From a virus (lineage: Duplodnaviria; Heunggongvirae; Uroviricota; Caudoviricetes): a stretch of 8,174 nucleotides of DNA. Of this stretch, positions 1,514 to 7,228 are shown one piece after another. Location of the stretch: the IMG/VR virus record IMGVR_UViG_2681813263_000010; one strand, 5' to 3'. Under the pieces are notes generated by a model, which made no database searches, was not told where the DNA came from, and saw nothing but the letters and a program-made list of their open reading frames with translations. The translations under genes and the position numbers were made by a program. How positions within the stretch are numbered: position 1 is the stretch's first letter; the number at the start of each line of letters is the position of its first letter.

Positions 1514-1898
1514 NNNNNNNNNNNNNNNNNNNNNNNNNNNNNNNNNNNNNNNNNNNNNNNNNNNNNNNNNNNNNNNNNNNNNNNNNNNNNNNNNNNNNNN
1601 NNNNNNNNNNNNNNNNNNNNNNNNNNNNNNNNNNNNNNNNNNNNNNNNNNNNNNNNNNNNNNNNNNNNNNNNNNNNNNNNNNNNNNNNNNNNNNNNNNNN
1701 NNNNNNNNNNNNNNNNNNNNNNNNNNNNNNNNNNNNNNNNNNNNNNNNNNNNNNNNNNNNNNNNNNNNNNNNNNNNNNNNNNNNNNNNNNNNNNNNNNNN
1801 NNNNNNNNNNNNNNNNNNNNNNNNNNNNNNNNNNNNNNNNNNNNNNNNNNNNNNNNNNNNNNNNNNNNNNNNNNNNNNNNNNNNNNNNNNNNNNNNNN

Positions 1899-3090: not shown

Positions 3091-3718
3091 NNNNNNNNNN
3101 NNNNNNNNNNNNNNNNNNNNNNNNNNNNNNNNNNNNNNNNNNNNNNNNNNNNNNNNNNNNNNNNNNNNNNNNNNNNNNNNNNNNNNNNNNNNNNNNNNNN
3201 NNNNNNNNNNNNNNNNNNNNNNNNNNNNNNNNNNNNNNNNNNNNNNNNNNNNNNNNNNNNNNNNNNNNNNNNNNNNNNNNNNNNNNNNNNNNNNNNNNNN
3301 NNNNNNNNNNNNNNNNNNNNNNNNNNNNNNNNNNNNNNNNNNNNNNNNNNNNNNNNNNNNNNNNNNNNNNNNNNNNNNNNNNNNNNNNNNNNNNNNNNNN
3401 NNNNNNNNNNNNNNNNNNNNNNNNNNNNNNNNNNNNNNNNNNNNNNNNNNNNNNNNNNNNNNNNNAACGTAATATTTTTTCTCCTGTAAGNNNNNNNNNN
3501 NNNNNNNNNNNNNNNNNNNNNNNNNNNNNNNNNNNNNNNNNNNNNNNNNNNNNNNNNNNNNNNNNNNNNNNNNNNNNNNNNNNNNNNNNNNNNNNNNNNN
3601 NNNNNNNNNNNNNNNNNNNNNNNNNNNNNNNNNNNNNNNNNNNNNNNNNNNNNNNNNNNNNAAAAGTAAATAGTGATGCTATTTCAAAGTGATTAGCAAT
3701 CTTATTAGAATTGGATGT

Positions 3719-4219
3719 ATGAAAAGAAAATCATTGTCAGACACCGACCTCAACGCCGCCAGAAGACTGAAAGAAATCTGGATGGCAAAGAAATCTCAGT
3801 TGGGATTGACTCAGGAACGTGCGGCGGAAATTATGGGGTTTTCAACACAAGGGGCGGTAAGTCACTACCTAAATGGTCAAACCCCACTAAACCTTGAGGC
3901 TGTTCTAAAGTTTGCTGGCTTACTGAAAGTTCCCCCTGAGTCAATCAGGCCAGACATGGTAGATTTGCTGCAAATTGCAAGGATGTATTGTCGAGAACCA
4001 CAGCAAGATAACATAGTCGCATTACCAGCAGACACAGAACAAACAGAGGATGAACTACCGTTTGCCGTAGAGCCGATGGAACGAGATTTAATCCATACGT
4101 TCAGAGCTTTTCCGAAAGAAGATCAAGAACACATGCTTCAGGAGATGAAAGATAAAAAAGAATCAATGGATCGTACGGTTGCGCGGTGGTTAGCTGCACA
4201 AAAAGGCCGTCGCGCCTAA
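3719..4219 (+). CDS. HTH (XRE/Cro-CI type) transcriptional regulator, PaaR-like regulator of the three-component TA operon; candidate immunity repressor
   Basis: ATG 3719 (MKRKSLSDTDLNAARRLKEIW...), 166 aa, stop TAA 4217-4219. HTH segment LTQERAAEIMGFSTQGAVSHYLNG. C-terminal motif DLIHTFRAFPKEDQEHMLQEM resembles the DicA C-terminal region as recalled. No peptidase S24 module. Track start GTG 3689 has no SD. Confidence 0.8.
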   Translation: MKRKSLSDTDLNAARRLKEIWMAKKSQLGLTQERAAEIMGFSTQGAVSHYLNGQTPLNLEAVLKFAGLLKVPPESIRPDMVDLLQIARMYCREPQQDNIVALPADTEQTEDELPFAVEPMERDLIHTFRAFPKEDQEHMLQEMKDKKESMDRTVARWLAAQKGRRA

Positions 4220-4238: not shown

Positions 4239-4433
4239 ATGAGTACAGTCCTTTCCCCAATGGTTTCAGAATTTGAGACAGTTGAGCAAGAAAATAGTTA
4301 CAACGAATGGCTGCGGGCCAAAGTAGCAGCAAGCCTCGCGGATCCCCGCCCGGCGATTCCGCATGATGAGGTAATGGCGGAAATGGAACAAATTATTGCC
4401 CAAATTGCTGCTGCAACTCACAGAGGTGAATNN
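4239..4433 (+). CDS. paaA: PaaA-family antitoxin (64 aa; stop codon partly masked)
   Basis: SD GAGGA 4225-4229, ATG 4239. N-terminal 45 aa (..LSPMVSEFET.EQENSYNEWLRAKVA.SLADPRPAIPHDEV) matches the PaaA2 antitoxin of E. coli O157 paaR2-paaA2-parE2 as I recall it; the C-terminal 19 aa differ. In-frame codon 4431-4433 is tNN, consistent with a stop. Confidence 0.8.
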
Positions 4434-4469
4434 NNNNNNNNNNNNNNNNNNNNNNNNNNNNNNNNNNNN

Positions 4470-4587
4470 TTATGGCTACCATCTGCTCGTGATGATTTGC
4501 GCCAGATCGTAGCCTACATAGCTAAAGAAAATCCCGCGGCAGCACGCAGAATGAAAATTCGAATTGAAACATCCGTTTTGCCGCTCA
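4470..4587 (+). CDS. parE: ParE/RelE-superfamily toxin, N-terminal part visible (start in gap 4432-4469, 3' part in gap 4588-4730)
   Basis: LWLPSARDDLRQIVAYIAKENPAAARRMKIRIETSVLPL fits the ParE N-terminal helical hairpin pattern (..A..DL..I..YIA..NP.AA......L......LP). Immediately downstream of the PaaA-like antitoxin. Confidence 0.7.
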
Positions 4588-4730
4588 NNNNNNNNNNNNN
4601 NNNNNNNNNNNNNNNNNNNNNNNNNNNNNNNNNNNNNNNNNNNNNNNNNNNNNNNNNNNNNNNNNNNNNNNNNNNNNNNNNNNNNNNNNNNNNNNNNNNN
4701 NNNNNNNNNNNNNNNNNNNNNNNNNNNNNN

Positions 4731-4931
4731 GTATCCCTTTCCTGGTTGCTGACAGGAAAAGAAGATAGCAATAGAGAGACACTTGATGATGATGAGAAAG
4801 CCCTGCTTGATGTTTACAGAAATCTGCCACCTGTAGAACGCAGAAATATGCTTGCAGCTTTTCAAATGCGACTTCAAAAACTGACTGAATTTTATTCAGA
4901 ATACGTTGACCCAGCAACGCGTCAAAAATAA
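4731..4931 (+). CDS. DicA-like HTH repressor, C-terminal 66 codons (N-terminus masked, or a 3' remnant)
   Basis: VSLSWLLTGKEDSNRETLDDDEKALLDVYRNLPPVERRNMLAAFQMRLQKLTEFYSEYVDPATRQK, stop TAA 4929-4931. WLLTG is the typical end of a Cro/CI-type HTH domain; the following motif parallels DicA (..ELLELFNALPESEQDTQLAEM..) as recalled. Position upstream of ydfA-ydfB matches dicA in Qin. Confidence 0.5.
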   Translation, partial: VSLSWLLTGKEDSNRETLDDDEKALLDVYRNLPPVERRNMLAAFQMRLQKLTEFYSEYVDPATRQK

Positions 4932-4953
4932 TTCTTTATTTTACAAAACAATA

Positions 4954-4975
4954 CCGCCGAAAGGCGGTTTTTTTT
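4954..4975 (+). terminator. rho-independent terminator
   Basis: Stem CCGCC (4954-4958), loop GAAA, stem GGCGG (4963-4967), then T8 (4968-4975), 23 bp after the DicA-like stop. An A-rich tract upstream could allow weak activity on the other strand. Confidence 0.8.
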
Positions 4976-4980
4976 GCCTT

Positions 4981-5025
4981 TTATGAATTCATAATGTTGA
5001 CATATGTTCATTTAAAGAGAACAAT
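4981..5025 (+). promoter_or_regulatory. 14-bp perfect palindrome (operator candidate) abutting a sigma70-like promoter for the ydfA-dicB operon
   Basis: TTATGAATTCATAA (4981-4994) is perfectly self-complementary. TTGACA at 4997-5002; 17 bp downstream AACAAT (5020-5025) is a weak -10. About 75 bp upstream of the ydfA ATG. Confidence 0.4.
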
Positions 5026-5098
5026 GTATTCCATCAAAGCACAACGGTGCGACAGGTTTTAGTTCCGCCACCCGGCGTTAAGGGGAAATGAGGTCAGC

Positions 5099-5254
5099 AT
5101 GGATACTATCGATCTTGGCAACAACGAATCTCTGGTATGTGGCGTGTTCCCCAACCAGGATGGAACGTTCACCGCCATGACTTATACCAAAAGCAAAACG
5201 TTTAAAACCGAAGCTGGCGCGCGTCGCTGGCTGGAAAGAAACTCAGGTGAGTGA
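5099..5254 (+). CDS. ydfA: YdfA-like small prophage protein (51 aa)
   Basis: SD GAGGT 5090-5094, ATG 5099, stop TGA 5252-5254. MDTIDLGNNESLVCGVFPNQDGTFTAMTYTKSKTFKTEAGARRWLERNSGE, recognised as Qin-prophage YdfA-like. Not in the ORF track (short). Confidence 0.85.
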   Translation: MDTIDLGNNESLVCGVFPNQDGTFTAMTYTKSKTFKTEAGARRWLERNSGE

Positions 5255-5255
5255 T

Positions 5256-5384
5256 ATGGATTTCGACACAATCATGGAAAAGGCTTACGAAGAATACTTC
5301 GAAGGCCTTGCCGAAGGCGAAGAAGCTCTCAGCTTCAGCGAATTTAAACAGGCGCTTTCCAGTTCGGCAAAATCTAACGGCTGA
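5256..5384 (+). CDS. ydfB: YdfB-like small prophage protein (42 aa)
   Basis: ATG 5256, one nt after the ydfA stop; SD GGTGA 5246-5250; stop TGA 5382-5384. MDFDTIMEKAYEEYFEGLAEGEEALSFSEFKQALSSSAKSNG. Confidence 0.85.
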   Translation: MDFDTIMEKAYEEYFEGLAEGEEALSFSEFKQALSSSAKSNG

Positions 5385-5412
5385 TAAGCGAAACAGCACG
5401 CGAGGAATCAGT

Positions 5413-5523
5413 ATGCAGAAACGAGAACCCGTCATCATCGCGCCAGACTATACCGATGATGAACTTTATGAGTGGATTTTGGCGGCATCAGTTTCATTGC
5501 TGGCTGATGTCCGCCCTTTTTAA
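5413..5523 (+). CDS. YdfC-like small ORF (36 aa); 3' end overlaps the DicF-like sRNA
   Basis: SD GAGGAA 5402-5407, ATG 5413, stop TAA 5521-5523. MQKREPVIIAPDYTDDELYEWILAASVSLLADVRPF; the N-terminus resembles YdfC as recalled. The ORF-track 5251..5523 entry is the same frame with a spurious upstream start overlapping ydfB. Confidence 0.5.
   Translation: MQKREPVIIAPDYTDDELYEWILAASVSLLADVRPF
5465..5521 (+). ncRNA. dicF: DicF-like small RNA (processed from the dicB-operon transcript) with 3' terminator hairpin
   Basis: tttatgagtggattttGGCGGcATCAGtttcattgctggCTGATgtCCGCCcttttt resembles K-12 DicF as recalled (UUUCUGGUGACGUUUGGCGGUAUCAGUUUUACUCCGUGACUGCUCUGCCGCCC). Stem GGCGG.ATCAG / CTGAT..CCGCC (5481-5515), U-run 5517-5521. 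Position after ydfC matches Qin. Confidence 0.6.
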
Positions 5524-5703
5524 AGTGAATTTTGTGATGCGGTGAATGCGGCTCAGCGCACGCGGAACAGTTAAAACAGTAAGGAAAATCCCTTATTCCG
5601 GCGTTAATTATTAACTGGTTAACGTCACCTGGAGGCACCAGGCACCGCATCAACAAAGTTCACTTCGGTGATGAAAGGAAAGAGAAAATGTTGAATGTAG
5701 CTA

Positions 5704-5732
5704 TTGAAAACCAGAACGGGTGGAATTATAGT
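5704..5732 (+). promoter_or_regulatory. candidate sigma70 promoter: TTGAAA-N17-TATAGT
   Basis: TTGAAA 5704-5709, 17-bp spacer, TATAGT 5727-5732. Lies inside the stop-free frame upstream of the Rha ATG, arguing that this stretch is leader rather than coding. Confidence 0.4.
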
Positions 5733-5794
5733 GCATCTGCACCTCATAAAACGGGGGCCGGGCGTGGAAACCCGAACGTTACTCGAGCGCATAG

Positions 5795-5815
5795 CCGCGC
5801 TGAAGCGGTTTTTTT
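5795..5815 (+). terminator. weak terminator-like hairpin plus U-run (possible attenuator or sRNA 3' end)
   Basis: CCGC (5795-5798), loop GCTGAA, GCGG (5805-5808), followed by T7 (5809-5815). Only a 4-bp stem; an alternative GCGC/GCGC pairing (5787-5790 with 5797-5800) is mutually exclusive with it. Confidence 0.35.
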
Positions 5816-5984
5816 ATGCGTAATGCACAGCTCCATTCAAATTATGGTGGGATGTGCAGGGCAGTCGCAAGACTGGCCGGGTTCTCGAGTGACCGGTATT
5901 TCCACCCCTGTACGTCTCACCACCCTTATGGTCGTGGAAAACCTCGGTGGTGAGTTAATTAACTTATCACTCGAGGATGCCATC

Positions 5985-6542
5985 ATGGCTACTATCCCTG
6001 CCCTTTCTCACCCTGACGTAACCATCGAAAATGGTCGCGCTGTCACTACGTCTATTGCGATCGCAGAGTTCTTTGGCAAGCGTCACGACAATGTGTTACG
6101 TGCCATCGCAAATACTGAATGCTCACCTGAATTTAACGCCCTCAATTTTGAGGACGTCACCTACACTGACGCCAAAGGCGAAAAACGCCCGATGTACCAA
6201 ATCACCAAAAACGGCTTCGTTTTCCTGGTGATGGGATTCACTGGCAAAAAAGCCGCTGCATTCAAAGAAGCCTACATTGCTGAGTTCGACCGCATGGAGG
6301 CCGAACTGCGCCAGAATAACACCCCACCCACTGACAAAATAATTCCAGGCGATGGCCGCACCCTGGTTGTTCACTTCGACGAACGCGGCAACATCAGATT
6401 CACCGAAACCGTTCCTGATGGCGCACGGGTCTGTACCATGGAGACTTTCCGGTTTTATCTGGAAGAACAGGGATGGACTCTTGTTAACCGGGGCGCAATT
6501 AAAAATATGACTGTAGAGCAATTACTCAAAATTCATTGTTGA
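5985..6542 (+). CDS. Rha-family phage regulatory protein (185 aa)
   Basis: SD GAGGA 5972-5976, ATG 5985, stop TGA 6540-6542. N-terminal domain ..ENGRAVTTSIAIAEFFGKRHDNVLRAI...DAKGEKRPMYQITKNGFVFLVMGFTGKKAAAFKEAYIAEFDRME matches the Rha (pRha) signature. Track ORF 5688..6542 is the same frame with an upstream extension judged non-coding. Confidence 0.8.
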   Translation: MATIPALSHPDVTIENGRAVTTSIAIAEFFGKRHDNVLRAIANTECSPEFNALNFEDVTYTDAKGEKRPMYQITKNGFVFLVMGFTGKKAAAFKEAYIAEFDRMEAELRQNNTPPTDKIIPGDGRTLVVHFDERGNIRFTETVPDGARVCTMETFRFYLEEQGWTLVNRGAIKNMTVEQLLKIHC

Positions 6543-6552
6543 GGACGCGATA

Positions 6553-6741
6553 ATGGAAACGTTATTACCAAACGTTAATACGACTGAAGGTTGTTTTGAA
6601 ATTGGTGTCACTATCAGTAACACGGTATTTACTGAAGATGCCATTAACAAGAGAAAACACGAACGGGAGCTATTAAATAAAATATGCATTGTTTCAATGC
6701 TGGCTCGTTTGCGTCTGATGCAAAAAGGATGCTGGCGATGA
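6553..6741 (+). CDS. dicB: DicB cell-division inhibitor (62 aa)
   Basis: SD GAGGA 6541-6545, ATG 6553, stop TGA 6739-6741. METLLPNVNTTEGCFEIGVTISNTVFTEDAINKRKHERELLNKICIVSMLARLRLMQKGCWR, near-identical in pattern to K-12 DicB as recalled. Confidence 0.9.
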   Translation: METLLPNVNTTEGCFEIGVTISNTVFTEDAINKRKHERELLNKICIVSMLARLRLMQKGCWR

Positions 6742-6929
6742 ATACAGCATTTGCACTCGTTCTGACCGTTATTCTTAATACGGGCGAACCAGCTGAACTG
6801 GTTACCGGAGTATACAACTCCATGAAAGAATGCGTGGCTGCTGCAGCTGAACAGAAAATTCCCGGTAACTGTTATCCGGTTGATAAAATCATTCACCAGG
6901 ATAATAAAGAAGTCCCGGCAGGTCTTTAA
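6738..6929 (+). CDS. ydfD: YdfD-like small protein (63 aa; family reported as lysis-associated)
   Basis: ATG 6738-6740 overlaps the dicB stop (ATGA); SD AAGGA 6724-6728; stop TAA 6927-6929. MNTAFALVLTVILNTGEPAELVTGVYNSMKECVAAAAEQKIPGNCYPVDKIIHQDNKEVPAGL. Hydrophobic N-terminal segment. Confidence 0.85.
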   Translation: MNTAFALVLTVILNTGEPAELVTGVYNSMKECVAAAAEQKIPGNCYPVDKIIHQDNKEVPAGL

Positions 6930-7228
6930 AGCANNNNNNNNNNNNNNNNNNNNNNNNNNNNNNNNNNNNNNNNNNNNNNNNNNNNNNNNNNNNNNNNNNN
7001 NNNNNNNNNNNNNNNNNNNNNNNNNNNNNNNNNNNNNNNNNNNNNNNNNNNNNNNNNNNNNNNNNNNNNNNNNNNNNNNNNNNNNNNNNNNNNNNNNNNN
7101 NNNNNNNNNNNNNNNNNNNNNNNNNNNNNNNNNNNNNNNNNNNNNNNNNNNNNNNNNNNNNNNNNNNNNNNNNNNNNNNNNNNNNNNNNNNNNNNNNNNN
7201 NNNNNNNNNNNNNNNNNNNNNNNNNNNN

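Follow-up and report, generated by a model that had tools for sequence, protein, structure and literature searches.

The 8,174-nt window (the whole stretch of DNA analysed here) comes from a Qin/Rac-like cryptic prophage of E. coli or Shigella and represents its immunity region; the readable sequence corresponds to the early region of such a lambdoid prophage. Six runs of Ns interrupt it. Two kinds of immunity region are represented (Table 1): one in which the repressor gene is paaR2, followed by paaA2 and parE (A-type), and one with a gene for a DicA-like repressor (B-type), of which the window retains the 3' piece.

Table 1. Features of the 8,174-nt window and the lengths of its N runs
Feature	Position	Strand	Description
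Replication genes (DUF1627, DnaC-like, O-like), ydaT, ydaS	left part	-	
N run	1514-1898		385 Ns; 322 nt in references (excess 63)
N run	3091-3465		375 Ns; 304 nt in references (excess 71)
N run	3491-3661		171 Ns; 165 nt in references (excess 6)
A-type (PaaR2-type) operator-like inverted repeat	3669-3683		AATAGTGATGCTATT; OR side, just upstream of paaR2
paaR2	3719-4219	+	CI-analogue repressor, 166 aa; Pfam HTH_3
paaA2	4239-4431	+	antitoxin, 64 codons; of the stop codon only the first base (T, 4431) is readable
N run	4432-4469		38 Ns; 13 nt (AATGTTACCCGTT) in relatives, i.e., paaA2 stop and parE codons 1-4 (excess 25)
parE, codons 5-43	4470-4587	+	limited to the N-terminal helical hairpin, with 1 nt of codon 44; reads LWLPSARDDLRQIVAYIAKENPAAARRMKIRIETSVLPL
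N run	4588-4730		143 Ns; covers the A-type to B-type junction
DicA-like CI-type repressor, 3' piece	4731-4931	+	residues 62-127 and stop of a 127-aa protein
Intrinsic terminator	4953-4976	+	after the DicA-like stop
PL-like promoter, B-type	4997-5025	+	TTGACA, 17-nt spacer, AACAAT (promoter scan)
B-type operator-like repeat	5005-5023		TGTTCATTTAAAGAGAACA; between the PL-like promoter hexamers; 0.03 expected
ydfA	5099-5254	+	B-type ancestry
ydfB	5256-5384	+	B-type ancestry
ydfC stump	5413-5523	+	36 aa; B-type ancestry; 36-codon stump also in L020 and L032
isrK Hfq-binding RNA	5739-5815	+	59.6 bits, above Rfam gathering score
C4 antisense RNA	5840-5927	+	76.7 bits, above Rfam gathering score
rha/ant-like gene, dicB, DUF1482 gene, exonuclease gene	after the ydfC stump		
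dicB	6553-6741		62 aa, intact
N run	6934-7228		295 Ns; 234 nt in references (excess 61)

The left-hand genes belong to a three-component paaR-paaA-parE system, in which an HTH regulator and a PaaA2-type antitoxin lie directly upstream of parE, in an order that is the same in every relative. The exact PaaR2 product occurs on thousands of Shigella/E. coli contigs; in all the matches listed, PaaA2 and a 96-aa ParE come next, and in the canonical A-type arrangement (again always, among the matches listed) parE is separated from ydfA by about 280 nt. PaaA2 matches its Pfam family (PF21217) at 3e-23 and is identical to the antitoxin of two reference loci (L001 and L040). The 39 readable residues of ParE are 100% identical to residues 5-43 of the 96-aa protein in canonical loci (L040, L004) and align with positions 3-38 of 89 in Pfam ParE_toxin (PF05016, E 9.5e-6), while a full-length A-type relative matches the ParE2 structures 5CW7/5CZE at E 6.7e-37. 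The toxicity of ParE depends on the complete fold, including the C-terminal beta-sheet and tail (residues 44-96), which are probably absent or truncated in the window. The corresponding 53 codons and stop codon require 162 nt, as against 143 Ns; the canonical parE 3' sequence includes CAGAGCATCCTTACC.

The 3' piece on the other side of the 143-N run is 100% identical to 127/129-aa HTH repressors (L003, P0002, and P0003), so that both pieces are what the sequence-only reading had taken them for, a ParE N-terminus and a DicA-like C-terminus. The 61 upstream codons of the repressor (183 nt) are missing from the readable sequence. A Pfam search with the visible 66 aa gave no match; the HTH of the full-length relative P0002 spans residues 20-74, of which only residues 62-74 are readable in the window. 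No start codon, promoter, or OR is visible in the window for this piece, and parE lies upstream instead; in B-type loci the full DicA-like gene is always preceded by its own OR and by ydaS/ydaT, and these loci carry a DnaB-type replication module. Because P0002 scores 39 bits against the NCBIfam DicA model (NF007257, cutoff 101), the label DicA-like is used here and not DicA. The B-type repressor shares 27% identity with a 135-aa L013 protein, which does match the model (238 bits against the same cutoff). Residues 106-162 of PaaR2 (window 4024-4216) match positions 74-130 of 135 in the same DicA profile (E 7e-8), which points to a C-terminal domain common to PaaR2 and the DicA-like repressors, despite unrelated operators; this domain presumably serves oligomerisation.

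The similarity changes abruptly at the junction, a pattern that the sequence-only reading had proposed to look for. Left of position 4588, the window shows 0 mismatches to L040 over 3,618 visible nucleotides and is 99.8-100% identical to L004-L012. A-type identity stops at 4587 and B-type identity begins at 4731, and no bridging sequence is readable. From 4731 to 6000 (~1,270 nt), only 2 mismatches separate the window from L018/L020 (other B-type references are L030 and L003). The positions of mismatches relative to L018 and L040 place the return to A-type sequence within 5918-6014, inside the rha/ant-like gene, where the two types are ~98.5% alike and share an identical stretch of at least 97 nt; to the right, identity to A-type loci (L040, L041, L005) is 99.6%. 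As both outer flanks are A-type, the B-type segment constitutes a patch of ~1.2 kb within an A-type prophage, with the dicA 3' end on its left and the rha 5' end on its right. Its right seam is a homologous crossover. At the left seam, a k-mer and microhomology comparison of the A-type parE 3'/OL region with the B-type dicA 5' region gives a longest shared word of 10 nt, within chance, and GC content shifts across the 143-N run from 0.47 to 0.40, a change too small to be informative.

Some further features of the seams and of the neighbouring references are worth recording. L026 lacks 157 nt from within parE, and the left breakpoint of this deletion (1744/1745) matches the left edge of the 143-N run (4587/4588) to the base. 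A single public S. sonnei draft scaffold (CXDD01000391.1) carries the deletion, and its 64-aa product (P0061) is a singleton; the coincidence of edge and breakpoint may reflect a branch point common to both assembly graphs or a breakpoint that recurs. L040 has part of the rha 5' region a second time, in diverged form, at 1436-2010 beside a single N (1519); this suggests that L040 consists of two contigs, joined at the very repeat in which the window changes from B-type to A-type. Another 111 nt of L040 (7675-7785) are absent from the otherwise identical window at 91/92, where there is no N run; the difference is a clean deletion or an assembly skip.

The isrK and C4 RNAs both lie within the 5' part of a 284-codon 'Rha' ORF (5688-6542). 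Their arrangement looks like the isrK-C4-antirepressor module of the P1/P7 immI type; the true Rha start is probably the ATG at 5985 (MATIPAL...), and the 283-284-aa annotation of Rha in relatives may be over-extended. A search for DicF RNA in the window found none at the Rfam gathering threshold. Further downstream in the left operon, some B-type prophages (L029 and L035, both at 6436-6998) carry an unrelated PhdYeFM-ParE pair; this prophage family has therefore gained ParE-type toxin-antitoxin pairs at more than one place.

The mixed ancestry extends to the operator-like repeats. The A-type repeat AATAG-N5-CTATT has a single match in the window (0.04 expected), whereas in A-type loci one copy lies beside paaR2 and two more surround a promoter-like site between parE and ydfA, so that both OR and OL are marked (e.g., L001 and L004; A-type OL sequence: AATAGCGATGCTATTTACATC). 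The B-type repeat TGTTCA-N7-AGAACA is present at OR and OL of L003, L018, and L027 and absent from A-type loci; in B-type loci its OL-side copy lies within a promoter beyond the repressor terminator, in the spacer that separates the -35 and -10 hexamers. The window thus combines an A-type repeat on the OR side with a B-type repeat at OL and is not a coherent lambdoid immunity cassette. Judged by their joint occurrence at OR and OL within each type, the two repeats are putative operators of the respective repressors. For the prophage CP-933P, PaaR2 operators at OR and OL are documented, PaaR2 being the analogue of CI, YdaS of Cro, and YdaT of CII (PMC8630535). There, paaR2 occupies the place of dicA/cI (dicA in Qin), and a PaaR2-repressed PL/OL lies beyond parE2 (PMC8630535).

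What can be said of the hidden sequence depends on whether the Ns can be counted. The 20-nt anchors of the five other N runs are unchanged in public loci (L040, L041, L004, L005, and others), and the true length under each run agrees across every reference holding both anchors; all five runs are wrong, each of them too long (Table 1). The run between paaA2 and parE provides an internal control. The 38 Ns correspond to 13 nt in 7/7 reference loci with identical 20-nt anchors, and in every relative paaA2 and parE overlap by 1 nt (stop/start) and occupy different frames. Counted literally, the run places them falsely in one frame, and the ORF list accordingly gives a single 230-codon ORF (4239-4931) spanning paaA2, parE, and the DicA-like piece. 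Five private insertions, all under Ns, are not credible, since the readable A-type sequence (3,618 nt) shows no mismatch to L040. Errors in N-run length (-12, +137, and +167 nt) also occur in public S. sonnei draft scaffolds of the same prophage (L010, L026). The N runs thus look like scaffold gaps whose sizes were estimated. Between them stand two readable islands (25 nt at 3466-3490 and the 118 nt of parE), both 100% identical to the A-type reference; such islands are typical of short nodes from a de Bruijn scaffolder and not of deliberate masking. As a methodological lesson, N runs in such windows are no ruler, arguments on frame or coding capacity across them are void, and an internal control such as the paaA2/parE junction can expose unreliable N counts.

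These lengths bear directly on how the sequence-only reading had understood the junction. Its estimates of the missing halves are confirmed, because 162 and 183 nt add up to at least 345 nt, compared to 143 Ns, and its suggestion that the masked length is not true is borne out by the five other runs and by those of L010 and L026. Its argument that the gap cannot hold both halves is sound as arithmetic but falls with the N count on which it was built. The same applies to the common frame: positions 4470 and 4731 are indeed both 0 mod 3, but the 143 Ns are no valid measure, and even at true length a shared frame would arise by chance in one of three cases.

A genuine in-frame protein, in which the ParE hairpin would continue through ~48 unseen residues into the DicA-like C-terminal domain, is very improbable. 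What speaks for it is solely the frame arithmetic, under the assumption that exactly 143 nt are hidden, and the frame read across the neighbouring 38-N run is demonstrably false. When a chimeric query of the ParE N-terminal and DicA C-terminal parts was searched against 5.8 billion protein clusters, no protein covered both parts; the best coverage was 63%, and the matches were ordinary 127/129-aa repressors or ordinary ParE proteins. The term toxin/HTH fusion, offered by the sequence-only reading as one option, would moreover be a misnomer, because the visible repressor part lacks the HTH, and the option is not supported.

If the counts are wrong, the hidden stretch could also be much longer than 143 nt and contain an intact parE 3' end together with a complete DicA-like gene, which would make a two-repressor prophage, or an IS element that mediated the join and interrupted the assembly. 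The unreliability of the N-run lengths leaves room for this, and a full DicA-like gene would allow the operator of the B-type PL to function, with the DicA-like repressor at OL and PaaR2 at OR. In Shigella drafts, gaps and breakpoints within genes are usually due to IS elements, and IS1 is found nearby in related loci. However, the N count would have to fall short by 200 nt or more (600 nt or more in the IS case), whereas 5/5 testable runs overestimate the true length by 6-71 nt; as all errors in this window are overestimates, a hidden stretch of at least 345 nt is disfavoured. Neither edge of the run shows IS bases, the flanks being canonical to the last base, and no genome or contig was found in which parE is followed by a DicA-like gene. 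A long hidden stretch is hence improbable, though less so than the chimeric protein.

The best explanation, held with middling confidence, is a real recombinant that carries a dead 3' stump of the DicA-like gene and a parE that is truncated or ends at the seam. An A-type region with replication genes, ydaT/ydaS, OR, paaR2, and paaA2-parE would extend to 4587. It would be joined to the right-hand end of a heteroimmune B-type region (4731 to ~5917), comprising the dicA-like 3' end, terminator, PL/operator, ydfA-ydfB-ydfC', and the rha 5' end, and a crossover in common sequence at 5918-6014 would restore the A-type. The 143 Ns would then be an assembly gap of estimated size that hides the left, non-homologous seam. 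As such a gap lies over the seam, and as the DicA-like piece has no HTH, start codon, or promoter, it is read as a non-functional 3' remnant; parE is probably truncated or, at best, ends right at the seam. A 3' remnant had already been among the options of the sequence-only reading and, given a physical join, is the most likely one. The direction of the exchange is the opposite, however: a B-type patch sits in an A-type prophage, instead of a toxin cassette in a resident dicA, although both versions leave the DicA-like piece as a 3' stump. The seam is an ordinary mosaic or assembly junction and not a toxin-repressor fusion. While the identities, the ancestry of each flank, the unreliable N-run lengths, and the mixed OR/OL repeats are shown, the existence of the join in the genome and the content under the Ns are inferred.

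An artificial join, a possibility left out of the sequence-only reading, is the most serious competitor, less probable than the real recombinant but of considerable weight. The source would have contained separate A-type and B-type prophages, and a B-type contig (dicA 3' end to rha 5' end) would have been set into an A-type scaffold during scaffolding or gap closing, joined on the right via the near-identical rha 5' repeat and bridged on the left by Ns, so that the parE-dicA neighbourhood would be absent from the cell. Several properties of the window fit this scenario. Within 8 kb there are six N runs of wrong length and islands of 25 and 118 nt, and the edges of the runs match breakpoints or N-run edges of other drafts (the right edge of the first gap is 2 nt from an N-run edge in L010). 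The right-hand switch falls where A and B are identical over at least 97 nt, a kind of stretch at which short-read graphs collapse, and the closest relative, L040, has a joined rha 5' duplicate beside an N. Both junctions are unique to the window among the sequences searched, and the hybrid OR/OL is functionally incoherent. The left join, in contrast, lies at non-repeat positions with no shared k-mer above chance and would require a second, unmotivated mis-join. No searched genome was shown to carry both types, which never occur together among complete E. coli genomes.

The same facts weigh on the real recombinant from the other side. As no k-mer is shared above chance, a shortcut in the de Bruijn graph is not the source of the left join, and a scaffolder needs read-pair support. 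The canonical A-type parE 3'/OL contig is unique and, if it were in the genome, should have been placed instead, which favours a real join. On the other hand, a real join is disfavoured because the left seam needs an illegitimate event mid-way through two genes, and because six gaps in 8 kb show an assembler struggling with repeats. It is also disfavoured by the record, as neither junction was found in any other sequence searched. None of 5,426 complete E. coli genomes holds the parE 5' and dicA 3' parts together, the phage collection yielded nothing for the left junction, and neither junction was detected in IMG/VR, JGI metagenomes, or GTDB representatives. An exact 40-mer from the start of the dicA 3' piece was found on three IMG/VR contigs only, all with the full gene, and was absent from GTDB representatives and JGI metagenomes. 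Exact-product look-ups of PaaR2, ydfA, and P0002 returned canonical contexts only, among the matches listed. The rha product of the right-hand switch, considered with two alternative starts, is not on record, which likewise counts against a real join, and a pattern specific to this B-to-A switch was absent from IMG/VR and JGI metagenomes.

Should the join be real, the promoter of ydfA...dicB carries a putative operator without a cognate repressor in cis. Unless this repressor is provided by a co-resident prophage, a hybrid region of this kind should be deleterious. That the join is real and that no DicA-like HTH is hidden, so that PaaR2 would govern the switch at OR while the left operon stood under the operator of another repressor, is rather unlikely. 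If this were true, the ydfA...rha...dicB operon (dicB encodes a division inhibitor) would be constitutive or dependent on a repressor provided in trans by a co-resident B-type prophage, and such trans repression would amount to a regulatory dependence between two prophages. Even less likely is the variant in which the remnant is translated as a chimera of the ParE hairpin and the DicA C-terminal domain; this product could bind PaaA2, or form mixed oligomers with PaaR2, which has a homologous C-terminal domain. A real join would also be a documented case of an immunity region recombined inside a toxin gene. It would be relevant to a proposal in the literature (PMC8630535), according to which paaA2-parE2 guards the immunity region from exchange of this kind. 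The biological weight is nevertheless small, as truncated genes are a common sight where cryptic prophages have mosaic seams.

All components of the locus are already known, i.e., PaaR2-PaaA2-ParE2, DicA-like repressors, and the ydfABC-dicB operon. The paaR2-paaA2-parE2 locus was reportedly first described by Hallez et al. in 2010. It is a three-component locus in the immunity region of the cryptic prophage CP-933P/Sp12 of E. coli O157:H7 (Jurenas et al. 2021, PMC8630535). The window resembles that locus in the order and position of the CI analogue, PaaA2, and ParE, in their divergence from ydaS/ydaT, and in the PL/OL beyond parE. It differs in allele, as the window or A-type PaaR2 has 166 aa compared to 123 aa, and ParE 96 aa compared to 92 aa, in the O157-type locus (L022). 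It also differs in that only ParE codons 5-43 are visible and the OL beyond parE comes from another immunity type. The dicA-ydfA ydfB ydfC-dicF-dicB region of Qin in E. coli K-12 is similar in that a repressor gene lies immediately upstream of a repressor-controlled promoter for ydfA-ydfB-ydfC...dicB; the window shares ydfA, ydfB, and dicB, and the B-type repressor can be aligned with DicA over its C-terminal domain. Unlike Qin, the window has only the last 66 repressor codons, no DicF match, and an isrK-C4-rha/ant segment between ydfC and dicB. Relative to lambda, the paaA2-parE pair occupies the place of rexAB.

The closest precedent for the exchange itself is provided by heteroimmune lambdoid hybrids, such as lambda imm434 and imm21, in which an immunity segment is likewise exchanged with one crossover in a common flank. 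In classical hybrids of this kind the cassette is exchanged as a unit (OL, repressor, OR, and cro), which keeps operators and repressor matched, whereas the left seam in the window cuts two genes and parts OL from its repressor. Recombination of this kind is discussed for the paaR2 region (PMC8630535). The phenomenon is thus the immunity-region mosaicism of lambdoid prophages, or an imitation of it by short-read scaffolding, and no new kind of system.
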